Shown here: positions 17,785-44,568 of the stretch, one piece after another | Layout of the letters: each line of letters opens with the position of its first letter | Position numbering within the stretch: the stretch's first letter is position 1 | Source: a virus | Lineage: Duplodnaviria > Heunggongvirae > Uroviricota > Caudoviricetes | Virus record (IMG/VR): IMGVR_UViG_2740892423_000027 | Direction: 5' to 3' (one strand) | Length of the DNA: 44,568 bases | Program-made: the position numbers and the translations under genes | The notes under the pieces: generated by a model | The model's input: only the letters and a program-made list of their open reading frames with translations | Told to the model about the DNA's origin: nothing | Database searches by the model: none

Positions 17785-17860
17785 TGGTGCTGGTTAACGG
17801 ACTTGAACCGCTACCCATTCGCTTACAAGGCGACTGCTCTACCATTGGAGCTAAACCAGC
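17785..17860 (-). tRNA. tRNA-Thr (anticodon UGU), phage-borne
   Basis: Manual cloverleaf: 7/7 acceptor pairs, 4-bp D stem, anticodon stem with loop CUUGUAA, T-loop UUCAAGU, encoded 3' CCA; folded by hand only. Confidence 0.7.
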
Positions 17861-17865
17861 ATGTT

Positions 17866-17940
17866 TGGCGGGACAGCGTGGACTCGAACCACGATAAGAA
17901 GGTTAACAGCCTTCCGTAATGACCTTTATACGACTGACCC
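17866..17940 (-). tRNA. tRNA-Asn (anticodon GUU), phage-borne
   Basis: Manual cloverleaf: anticodon stem GAAGG/CCUUC with loop CUGUUAA, T arm CGUGG-UUCGAGU-CCACG, encoded CCA; one mismatch each in acceptor and D stems. Confidence 0.55.
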
Positions 17941-33650: not shown

Positions 33651-33851
33651 ATGCAACACGAACTACAGCCTGATTCCCTGGTTGATTTGAAATTCATCAT
33701 GGCCGATACTGGCTTCGGTAAAACCTTCATCTATGACCGGATTAAGTCCGGAGACCTGCCTAAAGCCAAAGTTATCCACGGGCGAGCAAGATGGTTATAT
33801 CGTGACCATTGTGAATTCAAAAATAAGCTCTTAAGCCGCGCCAATGGGTAA
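33651..33851 (+). CDS. Excisionase / AlpA-family small DNA-binding protein (putative Xis)
   Basis: 66 aa; FIMADTGFGKTFIYDRIKSGDLPKAKVIHGRARWLYRDHCEF fits AlpA/Xis-type HTH pattern; directly upstream of integrase. Confidence 0.5.
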   Translation: MQHELQPDSLVDLKFIMADTGFGKTFIYDRIKSGDLPKAKVIHGRARWLYRDHCEFKNKLLSRANG

Positions 33852-33900: not shown

Positions 33901-33934
33901 TCCCCTGCTGCTTCAAGTAGATGTCTGCAGGGGA
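33901..33934. repeat. Inverted repeat TCCCCTGC..GCAGGGGA in xis-int intergenic region
   Basis: 8-bp perfect arms with 18-nt loop; no T-run following. Confidence 0.5.
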
Positions 33935-34050
33935 CACTTTAAAGACCTTTCTCTACATTTCACTTCATTACATAACCACTTAAAAAACAGTAATTTATCA
34001 CCGAATCGGCCTGATTTTCATTTCAGTTAATTTCATGACATTACAACCTC

Positions 34051-34110: not shown

Positions 34111-35397
34111 ATGAGTACAGATATGGCCATTAATGTGCTTTCCCCCAAACAGATAGAAAACGCCAAGCCGAAGACCAATGATTACAAACTTACCGATGGA
34201 GGGAGTTTGTATCTACTGGTACGAAAGACTGGTGGAAAATACTGGCGTATGAATTATCGTTTTGATGGAAAACAAGTGACATTGGCATTAGGGGTCTACC
34301 CAGATGTCTCACTTGCAACAGCGCGGAAACGGCGTGATGAAGCCAGGCAACTACTAGCCGATGGTCGTGATCCTCGCGAAGCAAAGAAACCCAAAAAGGA
34401 AGACCCAATTTCCCCCACGTTCGAGAGTGTTGCCAGAGAGTGGCATAGTGGAACGATGGGGCATCCTGAGTGGAAAGAGATCACCCGTAAAAAAATTCTC
34501 CGAGAAATGGAAAACCACCTCTTTCCTGCCATCGGTTCAAAGCCTATCGATACGCTCAAAACCCGTGACTTGATGCCGATGCTGGTTGAGATGACTGAGA
34601 AAGGAATTGGTGCCACAACGAGCCGGGTAAAAACCACTATGACGAGCATCTTCCGTTATGCCGTGCAACGTGGAATTGTCGATTACAACCCTGCCCACGA
34701 TCTAAAAGGTGCAATTACGGCCCCCAAAGTACGACATCGCCCCGCACTACCTCTCGAACGTTTACCTGAACTGTTAGCGAAAACGAGAAGTTACACGGGA
34801 AGACCATTGACTCGCCTAGCAGTTCTCTTTTCCCTGCACACTTTTGTGCGATCCAGCGAACTACGACATGCCAGATGGGAGGAGATCGACATTGAAAATG
34901 GGCTATGGACGATACCAGGACAACGTGAAGAGATCGCAGGGGTTAAATTCTCAGATCGGGGTGCAAAGATGGGGGCTGCTCATTATGTCCCGCTATCTAG
35001 TCAGGCTATCGGGGTACTGGAGGATATAAGGAAAATCAGTGGTGAATATCTGCTGGTTTTCCCCGGTGACAGCAACCCATATAAACCGATGAGCGAAAAC
35101 ACAGTTAATAAAGCACTGCGAACGATGGGTTACGACACTCAAACTGATGTATGCTTGCATGGGTTCAGGGCGATGGCCTGCTCTGCACTGACCGAATCAG
35201 GACTCTGGTCACGCGATGCAGTTGAACGGCAGATGAGTCACCAAGAAAGAAACGAAGTGCGGGCAGCATATGTGCATCTTGCGCAGCACATGCAGGAACG
35301 CCGCAGAATGATGCAATGGTGGTCTAATTATCTGGAACTAAATAAGGACGAATTTCATGCTCCTTATGACTTATCAGGTATTAACATTATCAATTAA
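34111..35397 (+). CDS. int: Tyrosine integrase, P4/CP4-57 type with N-terminal arm-binding domain
   Basis: N-terminus AKPKTNDYKLTDGGSLYLLVRKTGGKYWRMNYRFDGK (DUF4102-type); C-terminal catalytic region with HGFRAMACSAL and RAAYVH...; start 34111 or 34123. Confidence 0.9.
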   Translation: MSTDMAINVLSPKQIENAKPKTNDYKLTDGGSLYLLVRKTGGKYWRMNYRFDGKQVTLALGVYPDVSLATARKRRDEARQLLADGRDPREAKKPKKEDPISPTFESVAREWHSGTMGHPEWKEITRKKILREMENHLFPAIGSKPIDTLKTRDLMPMLVEMTEKGIGATTSRVKTTMTSIFRYAVQRGIVDYNPAHDLKGAITAPKVRHRPALPLERLPELLAKTRSYTGRPLTRLAVLFSLHTFVRSSELRHARWEEIDIENGLWTIPGQREEIAGVKFSDRGAKMGAAHYVPLSSQAIGVLEDIRKISGEYLLVFPGDSNPYKPMSENTVNKALRTMGYDTQTDVCLHGFRAMACSALTESGLWSRDAVERQMSHQERNEVRAAYVHLAQHMQERRRMMQWWSNYLELNKDEFHAPYDLSGINIIN

Positions 35398-35427
35398 ATA
35401 CTCTTATAATTTAAAACAGAGGTCATA

Positions 35428-36309
35428 ATGCAGCATTCAACAGAGAATGAAACTATATTCTTAGGAAATCTATGGATTGACAAAAAAATACCACCATTAG
35501 AATATTGTTCATTTGAACGCGCTTCAAGATTATTAGAATGCGAGATTGATGATTTATTACACCTATACGAAATAGGCGCTTTTAATATCGCATTCAAGGC
35601 GGATGGACTTGCAGTTAGATTTAATGTTAATTTCCTCAATAAAAATCAGAAAATGGAAATTGACTTAATTCATCCCGTATTAACTAATCAATCACTAGAG
35701 ATGGAGTTTTCAACAATATGGTATGACCTTAAAGATGATTCCTTTGAACATTTTGAAAATGGGCTTCAAATTATAGGATTTGCCTGTGGTATTTGGTACG
35801 CCGATGATATGATAAGTGACATAAAAAATGGATTAGCTATAGATCCAGATTATGAATTCAGGCTTAAACCGGTAAAAATACGAGATAATGTTTTGATGGC
35901 AACGGCCTCATATGAAGGAAATAAGGTCATTGATATTCCATTTGAAGATCTTCTTATCATGCGAAGAGATTTAGAGTTAATATGGAAATCAGTAAAAACT
36001 GGAATTCCTATGCCAAGTTTACTTACGAAAAGAATTTCATCTGAACCTAAAATCCCCAAGCGATTAAATAACACTGCTGAGCATCATGCAAAAAATAGGG
36101 AGGGGTTATTAAATGCAGCCATATATATTTTAGCAAAATACCCAAGCGAATGTCGTGGTGAAAGAAAAGAGATAAGTCCTGAAAAGTGGACTAACGCCAT
36201 AATTAAACATTTAGGAGAGCTACCTCCAATATTTATCACTAATGAACAAGAAATCTTAAGAAAATTACGATTAGCGGTTAATCATGCGGGGTTAAAACAA
36301 AAGGGGTAG
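35428..36309 (+). CDS. Hypothetical AT-rich cargo protein (293 aa) between int and alpA
   Basis: Starts 31 nt after int stop, AGAGG upstream; strongly AT-rich; no recognisable motif. Confidence 0.55.
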   Translation: MQHSTENETIFLGNLWIDKKIPPLEYCSFERASRLLECEIDDLLHLYEIGAFNIAFKADGLAVRFNVNFLNKNQKMEIDLIHPVLTNQSLEMEFSTIWYDLKDDSFEHFENGLQIIGFACGIWYADDMISDIKNGLAIDPDYEFRLKPVKIRDNVLMATASYEGNKVIDIPFEDLLIMRRDLELIWKSVKTGIPMPSLLTKRISSEPKIPKRLNNTAEHHAKNREGLLNAAIYILAKYPSECRGERKEISPEKWTNAIIKHLGELPPIFITNEQEILRKLRLAVNHAGLKQKG

Positions 36310-36411
36310 ACTGAAACAATCTACAGGTAGAGTTGATTACACTACCTTCACAGCATTTTGATATCCCCATAGTATCTGCCGTGTTCATTACATAACACGG
36401 CAGGTAATTTC

Positions 36412-36627
36412 ATGACATTAAAAACTTATCCTATCACTGGACATGCCCGCCCACGAGCTACTGCTGACTTTTTGCAAATAAGTACGGTTACTCTCTGGCG
36501 CTGGGAAAAGAACAATCCTGAATTTCCCAAATCTATACGCATTTCAAAACGGGTATCTGTTTACGATGCACAAGAAATTAGGCAGTGGGTTAAAGCTCAA
36601 TCAGCAGGATTGGAGGAAGTAGTGTAA
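36412..36627 (+). CDS. alpA: AlpA-family transcriptional regulator (prophage CP4-57-type)
   Basis: 71 aa; FLQISTVTLWRWEKNNPEFPKSIRISKRVSVYDAQEIRQWV matches AlpA HTH pattern. Confidence 0.8.
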   Translation: MTLKTYPITGHARPRATADFLQISTVTLWRWEKNNPEFPKSIRISKRVSVYDAQEIRQWVKAQSAGLEEVV

Positions 36628-36676: not shown

Positions 36677-36871
36677 TCAATTCTTTGGTTCTAAACCTCG
36701 GCTTTGTAACTCTTTGCGTAGAATGCGCTTGATCCAAGCCGCTAGCGATTCATCGCCATCCTGCTGTTGTGCTTGTTCCATCAGTTCACGCAGTTCAGGG
36801 TCAAGTCGGAACTGGAATGGCGGATTCCCACGTCTTTCATTTTTGTGTGTTGACACGTCAATTACACCCAT
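36677..36871 (-). CDS. Small ribbon-helix-helix-like DNA-binding protein (putative satellite repressor)
   Basis: 64 aa; PFQFRLDPELRELMEQAQ...ESLAAWIKRILRKEL resembles RHH strand-helix-helix; divergent from rightward operon; weak RBS. Confidence 0.4.
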   Translation of the reverse strand: MGVIDVSTHKNERRGNPPFQFRLDPELRELMEQAQQQDGDESLAAWIKRILRKELQSRGLEPKN

Positions 36872-36904: not shown

Positions 36905-37537
36905 ACAGAAAAACAAAATAGCAACGCCCCGGAGTGTTTGCAGCAGCACCGAGGCGTCTGACCAGCACGTTATATGAGGTAACGAAGATGGCTAAACAGA
37001 AGTGTACCTGGTTATTTGCGGCGATCAACCGCAGTCAACGTAATGCCCGTCCGGTGATGTTAAGGATCATCGCAGATAACGAACGATCAGCGCGGCGCAG
37101 ACTTGCCCCGGACTATGTACTGAGCTTTGCCGGGCGCATTCCCTGCGGAGGTGAACATGCGTAATTATCCGCACCCCGGCGAACGCTGGCAGCATGAACG
37201 TGGCTGGACGGTCACGATTATCCGATTAATAGAAGCCTGGCGCTGGTTAATCCTGAATTCAGCTGTGAAGTGCTGATACGTCATGACAGCGACAACCAGC
37301 TATCCTCCTGCCCTCTGGCATGGTTTGAACAGCGGTATACGCGCCTGTTTGATGTACCGCTCTTTAAGCCTGCACCAGCTCCTGCAGGCGGTAGTGGTTC
37401 CGGCCCGCTGACACTGCATCCGTCTGTGCTATTTATCCGCTGGCGGGAGCGTAGCATATGGCGCTCTGCTGAGCCTGACGACGGTCACTATTCAAAGTTT
37501 CTCTGACAAAATACCGCTGAAAACGGAGTAATCCACG

Positions 37538-37822: not shown

Positions 37823-38202
37823 ACCAGCCGCAGGTTTCCATTTTCCCGGCAGAAATGACCACCGCGCTTTACCGGCGGGCTATTGCTTCAGCATGGCGGC
37901 AGAAAATGCTGAACGAAACTGGCAGTGATCAGTATGGTCCGCACAGCCTGACGGTGGAGCGTATTGAAATGGCCATTGCGCTGCATATCGAGTGCGTACT
38001 GATTAACGAGTACGGCGAAGTGCAGGGCGCCGCTGCCGCGCTGGCACTGCTGACTGACATGCTGGAGCCGTCACTGCTGACCGCGCCGCCGGTACTGACC
38101 GCGCGCGGCTGTGAAGTGATGGCGGAGATGTACCGCACGCTTCCGGCGGCCTTTGATGACTTCTGCAGTACCGGTGTGACGTTGTATGAGGGGGAAGTAT
38201 GA
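37819..38202 (+). CDS. Hypothetical protein upstream of primase (epsilon position)
   Basis: 127-aa ORF; ATGA overlap with both neighbours. Confidence 0.45.
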   Translation: MNQPQVSIFPAEMTTALYRRAIASAWRQKMLNETGSDQYGPHSLTVERIEMAIALHIECVLINEYGEVQGAAAALALLTDMLEPSLLTAPPVLTARGCEVMAEMYRTLPAAFDDFCSTGVTLYEGEV

Positions 38203-40871
38203 CAATACAGACGGTTACGCAGATTTCAGCCGCCGCACGGGGGAAATGGCCCGTTATTCTGCAGATGCTGCGTATTGATGTACCTGAAAACGGCAGGCAC
38301 GGTCCCTGCCCGAAATGTGGGGGCAAGGATCGTTTTCGCCTTGATGACCTTGACGGGCGCGGGACGTGGATCTGCAGCCAGTGTGGCAATGGTGACGGTC
38401 TGGATCTGGTTAAGCTCGTAACCGGTTACAGCGTCAGAAAGGCTGCGCAGGAGGTGGCGCAGGTGCTTAATGTGCCGGATGTGCAGGAACTGCCTGTTAA
38501 GCCTGCCAGACAAAAAGCCCCTAAACGCGACATGGGTCTTACCGTGGCGGCGCTGATGAAAGAGAGCCACACGGGAGAAAGCGCCTATCTGACAGGAAAA
38601 GGGTTCGCCGGATACCCGGCCTCTCTGACCGGAAGCGTGCAGCATATCAGCGGTAAGGATTTTCCTGCCGGTTCCCTGCTGTTACCACTCACGACCAACA
38701 CCGGAGCCGTGACCGGTGCACAGCTTATCGCCCCGACGGGTGAAAAAAGCATACTGCCCGGCAGCACGATGAAAGGCGCGTTTGTGTCGCTCAGCCCGTT
38801 ACCGTCTGAACCACCGGTACAGGTGGTGATTACCGAAGGTTACGCTACGGCGCTGACGGTAAGCCAGCTCACTGCCGGATGCGTAGTGGCTGCCATATCT
38901 GCGGGCAACCTGCCCAATGTGGCGCAGTCGCTGCGGGCACGCTGGCCTGAGGTAAAAATTATCATCGCCGGTGATAACGATTTTCAGGACGGGGGTGAGA
39001 ATCCCGGCAGAGCCTTTGCTGAACGGGCGGCAAAAGCTGTTGGCGGCTGGATGACGCTGCCACCAGGAGAGATTAAGGCTGACTGGAATGACTTTCATCG
39101 GGAGCACGGTATTACCCGTGCCCGTGAAGCCTTTCGCAACGGTCTGGTACTGTGCGGGGAAGGCCGCACGCAACTGCCGCACGGGTTCCGTCTTACCCAG
39201 GAATATCTCTGGTATGAAAAGCAGGTACAGCGCAACGGTGAGACGGAGATCCAGAACGTCAAAATATGCAGCCCGCTGCGCGTGACGGCAATCACCTGCG
39301 ATGCCGATGGCGGTAACTTCGGACGACTGCTGGAATGGGAAGATACGTGGGGTGAGTGTCGCCGCTGGGCGATGCCGATGGAAATGCTGAGCGGCAGTGG
39401 TGAGGAACTGCGCCGGGTACTGCTGGTTAACGGGCTGTCTTATATCAGCACCACCGGTGAGGCACGCGCACGCCTGATGGAATATATCTCACTGTGTAAA
39501 CCGGAACGCCGCGTGACCTGCGTCAGTCGTACTGGCTGGCATGGTCAGGTTTACGTCCTGCAGGATGAGGTCAGCGGTGAAGGTGCAGAGGGTGTCATTC
39601 TCCAGACCACTTCCGTGCAGGGGCGTGATTTCCGCGTGTCGGGCACAACAGAGGAATGGCGGGAGCATGTATCCCGCTACTGTACCGGCAACTCCCGCGT
39701 GGCATTTGCTGTCAGCCTGGCCTTTGCTGCACCACTGTTACGGCTGGTTGGTATGGACGGCGGCGGCTACCACCTCAAAGGGGAATCGACAGACGGTAAG
39801 ACCACCACCATGAAAGCGGCAACCTCCGTCTGCGGCGGGCCTGACTACTGGCAGACATGGCGGGCCACCGGCAACGCGCTGGAGGGATGCGCCAGCCGCC
39901 GCAACGATGCCGCCATGATGCTTGATGAGATCCGGGAAGTTGACGGACGCGAGGCAGGCAATATCGCCTACATGCTGGCAAACGGTCAGGGCAAGGGCCG
40001 TGCCGGTACGGACGGTGAGCTGCGTACCCGTAAGCAGTGGCGCCTGTTGTTCTTTTCAACTGGCGAGTTGTCTCTGACCGAACATGCGGCAAAGGCCGGT
40101 GAGCGTACTTTTGCCGGGATGGAAGTCAGGATGATCCAGATCCCCAGCGATTCCGGGAAGTTTGGCGTTTTTGAGGAGCTGCACGGCTTCGACAGCGGCA
40201 AGGCTCTGGCAGAGCATCTTGAATGGGCCACGTCCTGCTACTACGGTTCGCCGTTCCGGGAGTGGCTGAAAGCACTGACCGCTGATCTTAACGGACTAAC
40301 GGCACAGGCAAAATCGCTGATGAAGGAATATGCTGCCGCCCTGACTCCTAAAGATGCAGGCAATCAGGTGGGCCGGGCTGTGAACCGCTTTGCACTGGTG
40401 GCGATGGCAGGTGAACTGGCAACCCGTCTGGGTATCACCGGCTGGCCTGAGGGTGAAGCACTGCGGGCAACCCGCGTCTGCCTGAACGCATGGCTGAAAG
40501 ATCGCGGGCACACCGCCAATCAGGAAGATATCGCCGCACTGGAGCAGGTTCGCAGTTTCTTTACCGCGAATCAGTACAGCCGCTTTGCAGACTGGTATGA
40601 CGAGCGCAACCGCCCCGGCAATATGGTGGGCTGGCGCAGGGTGGAGAAAGGCAGTACCGCGCAGGGCACGGAAGCTATCACTACGTTCTATGTCATGCCG
40701 TCCGGCTGGAAAGAAATCTGCAGGGGATTTGACCCGCGCAAGGTGGCGCGTCTGTGCGTAGATCGTGGATACCTGCTGCCCTCCACTGATGGCAAACTCC
40801 AGACAACCATTCGCCCGCCAGAGATGAATCCCCGCAGGCTCTATGTCTTCAACAGCGAGGTGCCGGGTTAA
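38199..40871 (+). CDS. Primase-helicase, P4 alpha type (zinc-binding N-term, TOPRIM primase, D5-like helicase)
   Basis: 890 aa; N-terminal CPKCGG...CSQCGNGDG zinc ribbon; TOPRIM-like ITEGYATAL...IIAGDND; C-terminal P-loop region HLKGESTDGKTT. Confidence 0.85.
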   Translation: MTIQTVTQISAAARGKWPVILQMLRIDVPENGRHGPCPKCGGKDRFRLDDLDGRGTWICSQCGNGDGLDLVKLVTGYSVRKAAQEVAQVLNVPDVQELPVKPARQKAPKRDMGLTVAALMKESHTGESAYLTGKGFAGYPASLTGSVQHISGKDFPAGSLLLPLTTNTGAVTGAQLIAPTGEKSILPGSTMKGAFVSLSPLPSEPPVQVVITEGYATALTVSQLTAGCVVAAISAGNLPNVAQSLRARWPEVKIIIAGDNDFQDGGENPGRAFAERAAKAVGGWMTLPPGEIKADWNDFHREHGITRAREAFRNGLVLCGEGRTQLPHGFRLTQEYLWYEKQVQRNGETEIQNVKICSPLRVTAITCDADGGNFGRLLEWEDTWGECRRWAMPMEMLSGSGEELRRVLLVNGLSYISTTGEARARLMEYISLCKPERRVTCVSRTGWHGQVYVLQDEVSGEGAEGVILQTTSVQGRDFRVSGTTEEWREHVSRYCTGNSRVAFAVSLAFAAPLLRLVGMDGGGYHLKGESTDGKTTTMKAATSVCGGPDYWQTWRATGNALEGCASRRNDAAMMLDEIREVDGREAGNIAYMLANGQGKGRAGTDGELRTRKQWRLLFFSTGELSLTEHAAKAGERTFAGMEVRMIQIPSDSGKFGVFEELHGFDSGKALAEHLEWATSCYYGSPFREWLKALTADLNGLTAQAKSLMKEYAAALTPKDAGNQVGRAVNRFALVAMAGELATRLGITGWPEGEALRATRVCLNAWLKDRGHTANQEDIAALEQVRSFFTANQYSRFADWYDERNRPGNMVGWRRVEKGSTAQGTEAITTFYVMPSGWKEICRGFDPRKVARLCVDRGYLLPSTDGKLQTTIRPPEMNPRRLYVFNSEVPG

Positions 40872-41271: not shown

Positions 41272-42015
41272 ATGAACAACACCGCAGTGAATATCAACCT
41301 TTCCACTTTTCCGGCTGTAACGCAGCGGGCACTGGAAACCATGAACACAGCCAGAAACGCATGGCTTGAAGCACGTCGTCAGCAGAAAGCGGCAGCGGAT
41401 AATATTGCGACAATCCGCCAGCGTCGCGCTGAAATGGAAGCCACGACGAACACACTGAATGAGGAGTGGCGCACGCTGTTTCGTGAAAGTCAGGGCGTGG
41501 TCTCAAAGGAAATGAAAAAACTGCGCACGGAAATTGCGCTGGGACGAGAAACGCTTGAGGATTTTGATGAGCTGCTGGCGGCTCAGGAAAGCGAAAATGC
41601 ACTTTTGCCGCAGAAAGCTGCGGAATTAGCCGGAAAGTATATCCACGCGCATAACATTCTTGTGGATATTCGCGCAAAACAAATCTGGGAAGATTTTATG
41701 CAGTCGCATGGAAAAGCGCTTATTCAGACGCTGAGCCTGCTTAAATCCACAATGGGCCGGGAAGCCAGTGCCGTTGTGGGTGTGGTGAATTCAGTTAATG
41801 ACCCGGACACAGTGCTGAAAGACTTTATTCATAAACATATCACCAGACCGGCTCTGGCTAACGATGCGATGCCTGAACAGGACCCGGTGTTTAAACTGGC
41901 GGGAGTTGCCCCGGATTATGCGGCGCGTCTGGATTTCAGTAATCAACTCTCTCCGGCAGCTATGCATAAAATAAAGGTTCGTCAGGAACTTGCTGAGAAG
42001 GAGAAAGCAGTATGA
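41272..42015 (+). CDS. Sid-like capsid size-determination protein (putative)
   Basis: 247-aa helical ORF immediately upstream of and coupled to psu; size matches P4 Sid; assignment by position and size. Confidence 0.45.
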   Translation: MNNTAVNINLSTFPAVTQRALETMNTARNAWLEARRQQKAAADNIATIRQRRAEMEATTNTLNEEWRTLFRESQGVVSKEMKKLRTEIALGRETLEDFDELLAAQESENALLPQKAAELAGKYIHAHNILVDIRAKQIWEDFMQSHGKALIQTLSLLKSTMGREASAVVGVVNSVNDPDTVLKDFIHKHITRPALANDAMPEQDPVFKLAGVAPDYAARLDFSNQLSPAAMHKIKVRQELAEKEKAV

Positions 42016-42563
42016 CGGCCCGAGGCACACCTGACCAGGCACTTACCAGTTTTCGGAATGCCCGTATTCTGTGGGCCGGACATAGTGAGAGCCGAAAAGC
42101 CGTTGAACAACAGATAACATCTCTCCTCGCTGCCACAGAAAAACCAGCAGATTATGCCCGACAGCTCGAATTACTGCGGGAACGTCTGGATGTGCTGAAA
42201 TGGCAAATTAACTGTGCTGCTCGGGAATGCATTTACTCGCAGCATTTATTGATGGAGGCCTGCACAGAAGCTGCTCTCAGCAATTTTATGCAGGCGAATG
42301 GGGCAGCCCTGACATCTGCACTGGCTCCGTTCCTGAAGGGGCGCGGAGGGGTTGACGTTGCGTCCCGTATATTACGCAGTGCTCTGGTTCGCCAGCTGGC
42401 AATAACACCGCCTGAAATTGCCGGGGATTATCGTGAGATCCTGGATGAATCCGGTTTGATGCCAGACCCCGGGATGATTCGTGATTGCCAGGGCTCTTAC
42501 ACCCCGGCACAACATCTGCGTTTTCAGCAACGCCTGAATGACATTAACGATATACAGGAGTGA
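42012..42563 (+). CDS. psu: Polarity suppression protein Psu
   Basis: 183 aa; LKWQINCAARECIYSQH, FMQANGAALTSALAPFL and YTPAQ segments parallel P4 Psu (RKWQVNQAAGRYIRSHE, FMQQHGTALAAALAPEL, FTPAQ). Confidence 0.8.
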   Translation: MTARGTPDQALTSFRNARILWAGHSESRKAVEQQITSLLAATEKPADYARQLELLRERLDVLKWQINCAARECIYSQHLLMEACTEAALSNFMQANGAALTSALAPFLKGRGGVDVASRILRSALVRQLAITPPEIAGDYREILDESGLMPDPGMIRDCQGSYTPAQHLRFQQRLNDINDIQE

Positions 42564-43104: not shown

Positions 43105-44568
43105 CTACCCATGACATTTTTTGAATTTTTTTCCTGATCCACAATAGCAAGGCTCATTTCTTCCCATTTTTTTTTCATTATTAACTATAGGGAATGTAGA
43201 CATATATGATGTCGGCTTAGGCAAGATGTCTGTAAGAACGCTATACTCCTTCATGGATTTTTTCGCTAATAAGCGCTCATCCTTTGTAAGTGGCTCATCA
43301 AACTTACAATAAACAACATCTTCAGAACGGCCCTCAGAATCTTTGCTTTCCGTTGCAATAATTATCAACTTCTTAATTTGACTGTATTTATACTTCGCCA
43401 CTAGTGCATACATTTGCACACAAGAAAAACGCTCCAATCTATATTTTTCATATGATAACCCTTCATCACGCGGAAAGAACAAAAAAATATAATATTTGCC
43501 TTTTTCGTCAATCGACTCAACAATCCTAGAACTTCTTCTATTAGTAGGAACCTGTTTGAACTTTTCTATAAATGCCTTAGAAAGATGATATCTTGACACT
43601 CTGCTTTCTGCTGCCAGTTGTCTAACTGTTTCCTCATGACTATGAAAGTCATTTTCTATACCCAAACCTACAGTTGCAGTAAGAATTGATTCCGAAAGTC
43701 TCTGTATCATTTCATCCCAAAACACACTTCCTTTTTTCATTGCCTTGTAATAATCATACTGAGGAGATTTTTTTAACACTTCCCACTCATTTTCTGCTAT
43801 TTGCACAAATGTATTTTCAGGTACCAATTTCTCATCTACAATCACTCCATGCCCGCTCAAATATGCAGCCAAAGTATCATCTTCTCCTGGACTTAATCTC
43901 AGAAGGCCAGAACGGACAACACGTTCCTTCTCTTTCAAGTAACTAACAAAGTCAGTAATTGTATCTAACTCCGACAATAAGAGATTTAATGACAATTCAT
44001 CTAACACATGAACAAATGTTTTATTTGGATAAATATCTCCAATGGAAAAAGGTTGCTCCATACTTTCCTTTATTCCAAATGAGAAAACATTCATGAGAGT
44101 ACCAGAACTCCCTTCAGCTATACGTGAAAAGAAATTAGATGCAGGAACCGAACTATTATTGGTTACAGCGATAAGGAAAAACCTCATATCTCTATTTATT
44201 TTAACTGGAAAGGGAACTTTGCATTTTTTATCTAAGAACAATCGTCCATGATGATCTTTTAAAAACTTCTCTGCCCCATGTAACTGAACAGCCGATTCAG
44301 TTATGGATTTTTTAAACCATCTTTTCCATGCTACAGAAACTTCAATCTCTTCGTTAAAGTTAATATCCTTATCTGAAAATAAAATCACATTATTTTCAAA
44401 AACAACTAATAAATCACACACCTCCTTCCCCGATTTGTTTTTAGAAAGCCCTTCATCACTATACACATTAGGATATGACCATAAACCAATAAACGCACTA
44501 TTAGCCAGTTCTATTAATCTTTTTTCAGTTTGATTAACTCCCTGCCCTTTGTTAATCACTTTTAACAT
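43105..44568 (-). CDS. AT-rich cargo protein with C-terminal SEC-C zinc-binding motif (487 aa; defence candidate); start coincides with last base of window so N-terminus may be longer
   Basis: C-terminus ends [14 protein letters not shown] (SEC-C motif); strongly AT-rich, antisense to satellite late operon; N-terminal region has a D..E..DK-like pattern ([17 protein letters not shown]) that could be nuclease-like but is unverified. Confidence 0.6.

Follow-up and report, generated by a model that had tools for sequence, protein, structure and literature searches.

In the SaPI islands, the gene adjacent to the integrase encodes Stl, a highly divergent and modular repressor that is transcribed divergently from the excision/replication operon, whose loss derepresses the island and whose variable part sets which helper phage induces it. 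The Stl sensors are also known for the swapping of their alleles, together with the fast evolution of their variable part. In the Vibrio PICMIs, the gene that follows int was named iolg or icg, for integrase-overlapping or integrase-contiguous gene (Barcia-Cruz et al. 2024, PMC10803314), with an iolg in 21 of the 35 subfamilies and an int-contiguous gene in 4 others (25/35), and with 13 sequence families among the genes of this slot, none of them with a known function (PMC10803314). In PICMI115, int and iolg appear to be constitutive and alpA is phage-induced, and deletion of iolg led to the loss of helper-induced excision, packaging, and transfer, which was complemented by int/iolg in trans (PMC10803314). 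In parallel, AlpA of the E. coli PICIs is described as a self-activating inducer that a helper signal switches on, and no master repressor is known (PMC6092414). Two questions arise for the Gram-negative satellites, i.e., the P4-like elements, PICIs, cf-PICIs, and PICMIs, namely, how the helper is sensed, and what role the integrase-overlapping gene has in excision (PMC6092414, PMC10803314).

Here we describe a gene of the same slot in an E. coli P4-like satellite contained in the window, that is, the whole stretch of 44,568 nucleotides that was analysed (IMGVR_UViG_2740892423_000027). The gene is called X below, and our preferred reading, to which we give a probability of about one half, is that X would be an integrase-coupled accessory factor for the excision/induction switch. 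The genes of the element that are needed to follow the argument are located as follows.

33925..33937, no strand: attL core CTGCAGGGGACAC, the 3' end of tRNA-Arg argW, where homology to the argW satellite of strain PM4 starts
34123..35397, + strand: P4-type tyrosine integrase (int), with Arm-DNA-bind_3 (PF13356), Phage_int_M (PF22022), and Phage_integrase (PF00589)
35428..36309, + strand: X, putative accessory protein gene without a Pfam model, 293 aa (from the ORF, the profile family, and the AlphaFold model)
36412..36627, + strand: alpA (PF05930, from Pfam), directly 3' of X
38199-40871: TOPRIM/DUF927 primase (from Pfam)
41272-42015: Psu-family gene, weak match (E 2e-9)
42012-42563: Psu-family gene, strong match (E 1.5e-44)

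The longest int ORF runs from 34063, and 34123 is the equivalent of the RefSeq start in PM4. In that strain, X is 100% identical and the element is inserted at tRNA-Arg argW, with the gene order int, X, alpA, a ylcI-like gene (minus strand), an icd-like gene, three small ORFs including a DUF5375 one, and the TOPRIM/DUF927 primase, followed 3' of the primase by two Psu-like genes, Ogr/Delta, and an AT-rich SEC-C/YecA-like gene (minus strand). The satellite of the window is P4-like but has its genes in a non-canonical order; in canonical P4-like elements, the neighbours of int are a defence hotspot and psu, not alpA (PMC8628076, PMC13586616). Its primase consists of Zn-ribbon, TOPRIM, and DUF927 parts and is not of the P4 alpha type (D5/Pox_D5). 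According to the PM4 annotation, the YlcI/YnfO-family gene (36677-36871, minus strand) lies antisense between alpA and the Icd-like gene (36934-37164, plus strand), and the YlcI-like segment is matched by E. coli plasmids at 85% identity.

X begins with an ATG that has an AGAGG Shine-Dalgarno 5 nt 5' of it, and it is separated from the int stop codon by a 30-nt spacer, being contiguous with int without overlap. Its GC content is 33.7% (GC3 25.5%), against 48.2% in int, 42.1% in alpA, and 59.0% in the primase gene. The preliminary description of this DNA had reported an AT-rich ORF of 293 aa at these positions closely 3' of int, belonging to no recognised family and devoid of TM segments and nucleotide-binding motifs, and all of this agrees with what we find: the protein obtained zero matches in Pfam (E<=1), NCBIfam, and PADLOC (E<=10) and a chance-level match only in PHROGs, it belongs to no named family, and it contains neither a hydrophobic segment nor a P-loop. 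X is present in 66 of 5,426 complete E. coli genomes, chromosomal, in single copy, and labelled "hypothetical protein" in every case, and the int, X, and alpA genes of the window are inherited in E. coli as a block, covered to at least 80% in 63 genomes. In the complete genomes of E. coli strains E41 (H13) and CE0021a (H17), X is disrupted by IS1 elements, and therefore, the host tolerates the loss of X; in strain MB51, the satellite is cut off by IS elements immediately after int.

The search for relatives of X was carried out at two depths. A word-indexed search returned 14 relatives, with the N-terminal ~45 residues moderately conserved, the middle poorly conserved, and the C-terminal ~75 residues strikingly conserved, and a profile run against 1.84 billion representatives recovered at least 566 protein clusters at E<=1e-3, 176 of which stayed within E<=1e-10, with lengths of 220-380 aa for nearly all of the 150 clusters listed. 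X belongs to a very large and fast-evolving family without a name, whose members come from Escherichia, Salmonella, Klebsiella, Yersinia, Serratia, Cronobacter, Brenneria, and Pectobacterium, and also from Kosakonia, Morganella, Xenorhabdus, Photorhabdus, Pantoea, Pseudaeromonas, and Zobellella, all of them annotated as "hypothetical". Pfam on 148 members gave nothing beyond chance (5 single chance matches only, E<=0.01), a PDB sequence profile search with the family gave a best E not below 0.7, and phrog_7144, of unknown function, matches 37 of the 148 members, with the window protein itself not reaching it. A tblastn search of X against 50,697 phage records found no match, so X is absent from P4 and the other deposited phages, and a scan of genome contigs with the A1 query found 3 loci only. 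That X could be a spurious ORF is ruled out by the size of this family and by an omega of ~0.10 (Nei-Gojobori), which comes from the 10 synonymous and 4 non-synonymous differences between X and its counterpart in E. coli a15. Among about 25 distinct elements, the GC of X is 0.32-0.40 (0.46 in one member), with 0.42-0.55 in int and 0.47-0.67 in the primase gene; the low GC is common to nearly the whole family and hence no evidence of a recent insertion into the window satellite, so the AT-richness was discarded as a sign of recent acquisition.

The order int, X, AlpA on one strand was found in 9 of 9 gene-called contexts, eight of them located by protein identity and the ninth being the annotated E. 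coli argW element, where the Pfam order is PF13356/PF22022/PF00589, X, PF05930. The insertion is beside yicC in E. coli, Yersinia, Xenorhabdus, and Morganella and beside der in Klebsiella, and in capsid-forming PICIs of Enterobacter and Hafnia, X sits in the slot with a 4-nt int/X overlap. The satellites that host X, which occupy four integration sites, are P4-like, PICI-like, or capsid-forming PICIs, and they vary in their replication module (DUF927, D5_N/DUF5906, or AAA_25) and in their hijacking module. A second E. coli argW satellite (L003) carries a distant 324-aa member of the family in the equivalent position.

A sample blind to X was obtained by choosing viral contigs by the att sequence of the fis 3' end and by running the family HMM on all their ORFs, which left 22 distinct integrases with enough downstream sequence. 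The slot was filled in 20 of these 22 elements by a gene of 121-302 aa at the int stop, overlapping int by 4 nt in 17, by 1 nt in two, and starting 89 nt downstream in one. The X family occupies 14 of the 20 filled slots, with 11 of the 14 overlapping int by 4 nt (ATGA), and DUF6387 (PF19924) occupies 6 of the 20. The DUF6387 proteins, 280-290 aa long and with 4-nt or 1-nt int overlaps (L048 2395-3267, L065 8966-9820, L077 1537-2382, L087, and L098), follow integrases up to 94% identical to those that precede X-family genes, and hhalign gave no detectable similarity between DUF6387 and X (probability 1.6%). Since DUF6387 shares the int-overlapping slot behind near-identical integrases, it may be a functional analogue of X. 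In CP4-57 of K-12, the intA-alpA interval holds yfjH on the opposite strand, and YfjH was ruled out as a homologue of X by this orientation and an hhalign probability of 0.6%. In EcCICFT073, ORF3 follows alpA (PMC6092414), which suggests, from the numbering only, that there is no gene between int and alpA, in which case the slot would not be universal.

The variability of the int-alpA interval that the preliminary description had pointed out is borne out by the divergent X alleles, by DUF6387 in some fis-site satellites, and by the opposite-strand yfjH of CP4-57, and the survey across satellites that it had proposed reveals a conserved slot with variable content. Its main proposal, a cargo or moron gene inserted between int and alpA, has for the most part to be abandoned in view of the presence of the family in all nine contexts and in 14 of the 20 filled fis slots, the ATGA coupling, the block inheritance, and the family-wide low GC. 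Conservation as a core gene across related elements, which the same description had set against its own proposal, is largely what we encountered, given that the X family is conserved in the slot of the related elements. We suggest keeping in mind, for annotation in general, that low GC and the lack of a family match beside an integrase gene do not automatically mean cargo or defence.

Like the Vibrio iolg/icg, X is a single gene that lies directly after int in the same orientation and precedes alpA, in an element with a primase; like them, it has no known domain, in a slot filled by many sequence families, and its relatives in the fis-site elements and cf-PICIs share with iolg the frequent ATGA overlap with int. 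The X gene of the window differs from iolg in its 30-nt gap, which is of the "icg" type, and in possibly having its own promoter, and its host is an E. coli P4-like satellite with psu and delta, whereas a PICMI is a 6-kb minimalist island. By this positional analogy, X is to be regarded as the enterobacterial P4-like-satellite variant of the integrase-coupled slot genes and not as a new kind of system. The primer-derived termini of the PICMI115 IOLG (MSELNKEDI..., ...YKNPFD), together with exact and degenerate DNA patterns, had no match in the loci, viral, and metagenome collections.

The evolution of X is different from that of its neighbours. When X is compared with its Pantoea orthologue, its dN is 0.226, with values of 0.295 for the middle part and 0.093 for the C-terminal domain; int, alpA, and the primase gene have lower values of 0.115, 0.078, and 0.050, respectively. 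These values, together with the omega given above, indicate that X is under purifying selection, yet evolving two to four times faster than its neighbours. Between the window and L003, the primase is 98%, AlpA 88%, and Int 77% identical, and the N-terminal, middle, and C-terminal parts of X are 45, 28, and 36% identical; at the DNA level, int is 70.6% identical, X has no similarity, and identity is 91% from 36374 on. Conversely, the C-terminal domain of X is 62-65% identical between elements where Int is only 27-28% and AlpA 27-35% identical. Among the fis-site elements, integrases are 58-96% identical and the slot proteins 18-67%; in the pair L075 and L099, Int is 96% and X 27% identical, and in the pair L064 and L065, with Int 94% identical, the slot families differ. 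The boundary of this variability is sharp at the int stop codon. The slot is nearly always filled, and its content is hypervariable, mosaic, and decoupled from Int and AlpA. The C-terminal domain as an Int- or AlpA-specific interface was considered and disfavoured, since the type of this domain does not track Int or AlpA.

Such hypervariability, with its sharp edge at the int stop codon and the replacement of X by the unrelated DUF6387, is also what would be expected if the position after int were a one-gene hotspot and X a defence, exclusion, or counter-defence cargo, i.e., an effector directed at phages or at satellites. Defence genes are known to be carried by satellites (PMC9122126, PMC13586616), the cargo of the P4-like hotspot resembles X in being AT-rich, variable among similar satellites, and unannotated (Rousset et al. 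2022, PMC9122126; PMC13586616), and the low GC of X is shared by the SEC-C/YecA-like cargo gene at 43105-44568. We consider this explanation quite unlikely. PADLOC on the 148 members gave chance-level matches only (E 1e-3 to 1e-2) and none among the 12 fis-type members, so the candidate defence function of the preliminary description finds no support in homology; its other candidate, a regulatory function, stays plausible. The slot holds exactly one gene of fixed format, 230-330 aa long and in the orientation of int, in many cases with translational coupling to it, from essentially two families and without defence-model matches, in contrast to real hotspots, which carry variable numbers and kinds of systems, and the described P4 hotspot lies elsewhere, between psu-delta-sid and int/att, whereas X lies between int and alpA. 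Neither an enzymatic nor a TM effector domain is predicted in X, and the phenotype of the PICMI iolg deletion is a loss of excision (PMC10803314). One PADLOC lead, PDC-S05, was followed and dropped, as its few matches at E ~1e-3 are a chance number and it is a RhuM-domain family, with no RhuM found in the members by Pfam.

The structure of X was modelled with AlphaFold2 from a 148-sequence alignment (mean pLDDT 85.5). The model has a strand-helix-helix-wing domain at residues ~20-70, a beta-rich domain to ~178, a helix at 179-191, a disordered linker at ~200-214, and a helical C-terminal domain at 215-292, and three parts are distinguished on the DNA.

35485..35652, + strand: X residues 20-75, predicted MerR/Xis-like winged helix, net acidic (from the model and the family alignment)
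35653..36027, + strand: X residues 76-200, beta-rich acidic middle, the fastest-evolving part (from the model, and dN 0.295 vs. Pantoea)
36070..36306, + strand: X residues 215-293, helical C-terminal domain (from the model and the alignment)

The N-terminal family consensus is LPPLEYCxLxRAAxLLxCExxDLxHxAxIG and the C-terminal domain has the motif AEHHAxNRE...YPxECRGxxKEISPEKW...; the middle domain retains GLW and DLxI motifs and is almost missing in the short family members, as in P0037 (197 aa), where the N- and C-terminal domains are present and the middle is nearly gone. Foldseek searches of PDB and BFVD with the model had no match at E<=1e-3. The profile and structure searches, which had been proposed in the preliminary description, have provided a large family and a three-part model, and no PDB or BFVD match for the fold. 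The predicted N-terminal domain has the strand-helix-turn-helix-wing fold of the MerR/Xis/AlpA proteins, and hhalign places its HTH core in register with the AlpA of the satellites themselves, weakly (probability 25%, E 7.7e-4). The earlier statement that X has no HTH motif is therefore true of sequence motifs only: none of the MerR/Xis/AlpA sequence models (PF05930, PF12728, PF13411, etc.) match the window protein or the 148 members, and the AlphaFold model does contain a MerR/Xis-like winged helix. X differs from the excisionases TorI (1z4h), Pukovnik Xis (4j2n), and the AlpA-family excisionase of GIsul2 (8c3t), as well as from MerR regulators, which are basic proteins of 55-140 aa, in being acidic, in its 293 aa, and in having two further domains without a solved relative. 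By charge counting, the median pI of the X family is 5.5 against 9.9 for AlpA, and the net charge is about -2 in the wHTH core (-4 in the window), about -10 in the middle, and +2 in the C-terminal domain; moreover, the wHTH core is without the basic recognition-helix residues of MerR and AlpA. An acidic winged helix makes Xis-like DNA bending unlikely and classical Xis-like DNA binding doubtful.

If X is indeed an accessory factor coupled to the integrase, it would be produced along with the P4-type integrase while the satellite is integrated and act in trans, and, by positional analogy to the iolg of PICMI115, the switch to excision would require it in addition to Int and the phage-induced AlpA; this excision requirement is inferred from the Vibrio genetics. 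The conserved N-terminal domain would work as an anchor, docking on Int or AlpA more probably than on DNA because of its acidity, and the swappable middle and C-terminal parts would, from this anatomy, give specificity for a helper phage or a host factor. We favour this accessory role because of the coupling to int, the conservation of the slot, and the PICMI genetics. Several points stand against it: the PICMI slot contains 13 families, so the transfer of function to X may be uncertain, X in the window has a strong promoter-like site of its own and a 30-nt gap, with no overlap, the numbering of EcCICFT073 suggests an element that lacks a slot gene, and IS1 disrupts X in two E. coli genomes. 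Furthermore, the absence of co-variation with Int or AlpA and the acidic winged helix argue against a snug intasome subunit, and the same absence of co-variation, the acidity, the allele swaps at the int stop, and the fast and dispensable middle suggest a specificity module with its target outside the element.

The sequences around X and alpA contain three predicted regulatory features.

35381..35410, + strand: promoter-like TTAACA-18-TATAAT, 11/12 matches, in the 3' end of int and 5' of X (consensus match only)
36347..36375, + strand: predicted promoter-like TTCACA-17-TAGTAT, 5' of alpA
36373..36406, + strand: 13-bp hairpin/palindrome over the alpA Shine-Dalgarno (-19.7 kcal/mol, z -5.7)

The int-X interval has no terminator-like site on the + strand, and X ends ~100 nt before alpA, with the second promoter-like site and the palindrome in between. 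The predicted alpA transcription start (-10 at 36370-75) falls inside the 5' arm of the hairpin, and thus, the read-through from int-X could be silent for alpA translation, with the transcripts from the alpA promoter not being so; the hairpin could equally be a dimer operator. Such a hairpin was found in 10 of the 11 elements examined (z -2.9 to -7.5; listed for the window, L003, L004, L008, L011, L013, L014, L017, L018, and L115), with a stem of 8-14 bp in at least four unrelated sequences, ending 2-10 nt before the start codon and covering or abutting the Shine-Dalgarno. Repeats link this region with the one 5' of int: TTCATTACATAAC is 13/13 identical at 33964-33976 (5' of int) and 36384-36396 (5' end of alpA), a CAGkTAATTTCATGACATTA block is 88% identical over 26 nt between 34024-34049 and 36401-36426, and the segment 34051-34103 has GTGATGGTAT direct repeats and inverted ATACCATCA. 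The block 5' of int is conserved in L003 and L011, and judging by these sequences, the repeats may be binding sites of a shared regulator or of the arm type.

Alternatively, X could be a helper-phage sensor and positive regulator that stays idle until a helper-phage protein is bound by its variable acidic domain, then switches on alpA by MerR-like activation or anti-repression, working outside the recombination complex and determining which helper induces the satellite. The fastest-evolving middle domain and the swapping of alleles between near-identical backbones are consistent with a sensor, as is the end of X ~100 nt from alpA next to the promoter-like site and palindrome; no phage signal has been described as the inducer of alpA in Gram-negative PICIs (PMC6092414, PMC10803314), and the lack of an activator would account just as well for the excision defect of the PICMI iolg deletion. 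This proposal is nonetheless rather unlikely, in view of the acidic wHTH core without the basic recognition-helix residues of MerR/AlpA, the alpA palindrome that is the same in the window and L003 in spite of X N-domains only 45% identical, and the MerR or HTH_17 models that match 0 of the 148 members. More broadly, and rather doubtfully, the X family and its slot-mates, i.e., DUF6387 and the Vibrio iolg families, might constitute the missing helper-recognition module of Gram-negative satellites, in which a constitutive X would bind a specific helper-phage protein by its hypervariable acidic domain and license AlpA-dependent excision, as a positive-acting functional counterpart of the SaPI Stl. 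If true, this would explain the allele shuffling between otherwise identical satellites.

An Stl-like repressor or maintenance factor, holding the satellite integrated until it is inactivated, would likewise be int-adjacent, modular, with an HTH-like N-terminus and a variable domain, and likely to be expressed while the element stays integrated, and no master repressor of the Gram-negative PICIs is known (PMC6092414). Deletion of the positional equivalent in PICMI115, however, abolished excision and did not derepress the island (PMC10803314), the N-domain of X is acidic, and the genes are all co-oriented, without the divergent promoter architecture of the SaPI type. X has no homology to Stl, and the PICMI slot gene is a positive factor in contrast to the repressor Stl. 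We regard a repressor role for X as highly improbable.

Returning to X as an integrase-coupled factor, E. coli and its relatives have in this slot a very large unannotated family with a conserved three-part architecture, and its allele swapping at the int stop codon is a pattern typical of specificity determinants. Given that X occurs in tractable E. coli satellites by well-known helpers, both helper sensing and the role of the slot gene in excision become experimentally testable.

At the far end of the satellite, after psu/delta and at the canonical P4-like cargo/defence hotspot, the SEC-C/YecA-like gene (43105-44568, minus strand) encodes 487 aa at 34.6% GC, with a C-terminal SEC-C motif as its sole domain and a RefSeq assignment to the YecA family; the end of the window coincides with its start codon, and its PADLOC matches (PDC-S12 and E2 models, E 1e-5 to 1e-7) lie within the SEC-C motif only. 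At the other end, just 5' of the satellite, a small AlpA-like ORF (33651-33851, + strand) is TorI, matching PDB 1z4h over its full length (E 7e-43), the excisionase of KplE1/HK620-type prophages and the last gene of an upstream prophage (1-33900) that looks complete, with terminase, portal, DnaB-like helicase, and Ead/Ea22. Prophage and satellite lie in tandem at argW, with the att core CTGCAGGGGACAC common to both, and the prophage contains genes for tRNA-Thr(TGT) and tRNA-Asn(GTT) at 17785-17940 (minus strand).
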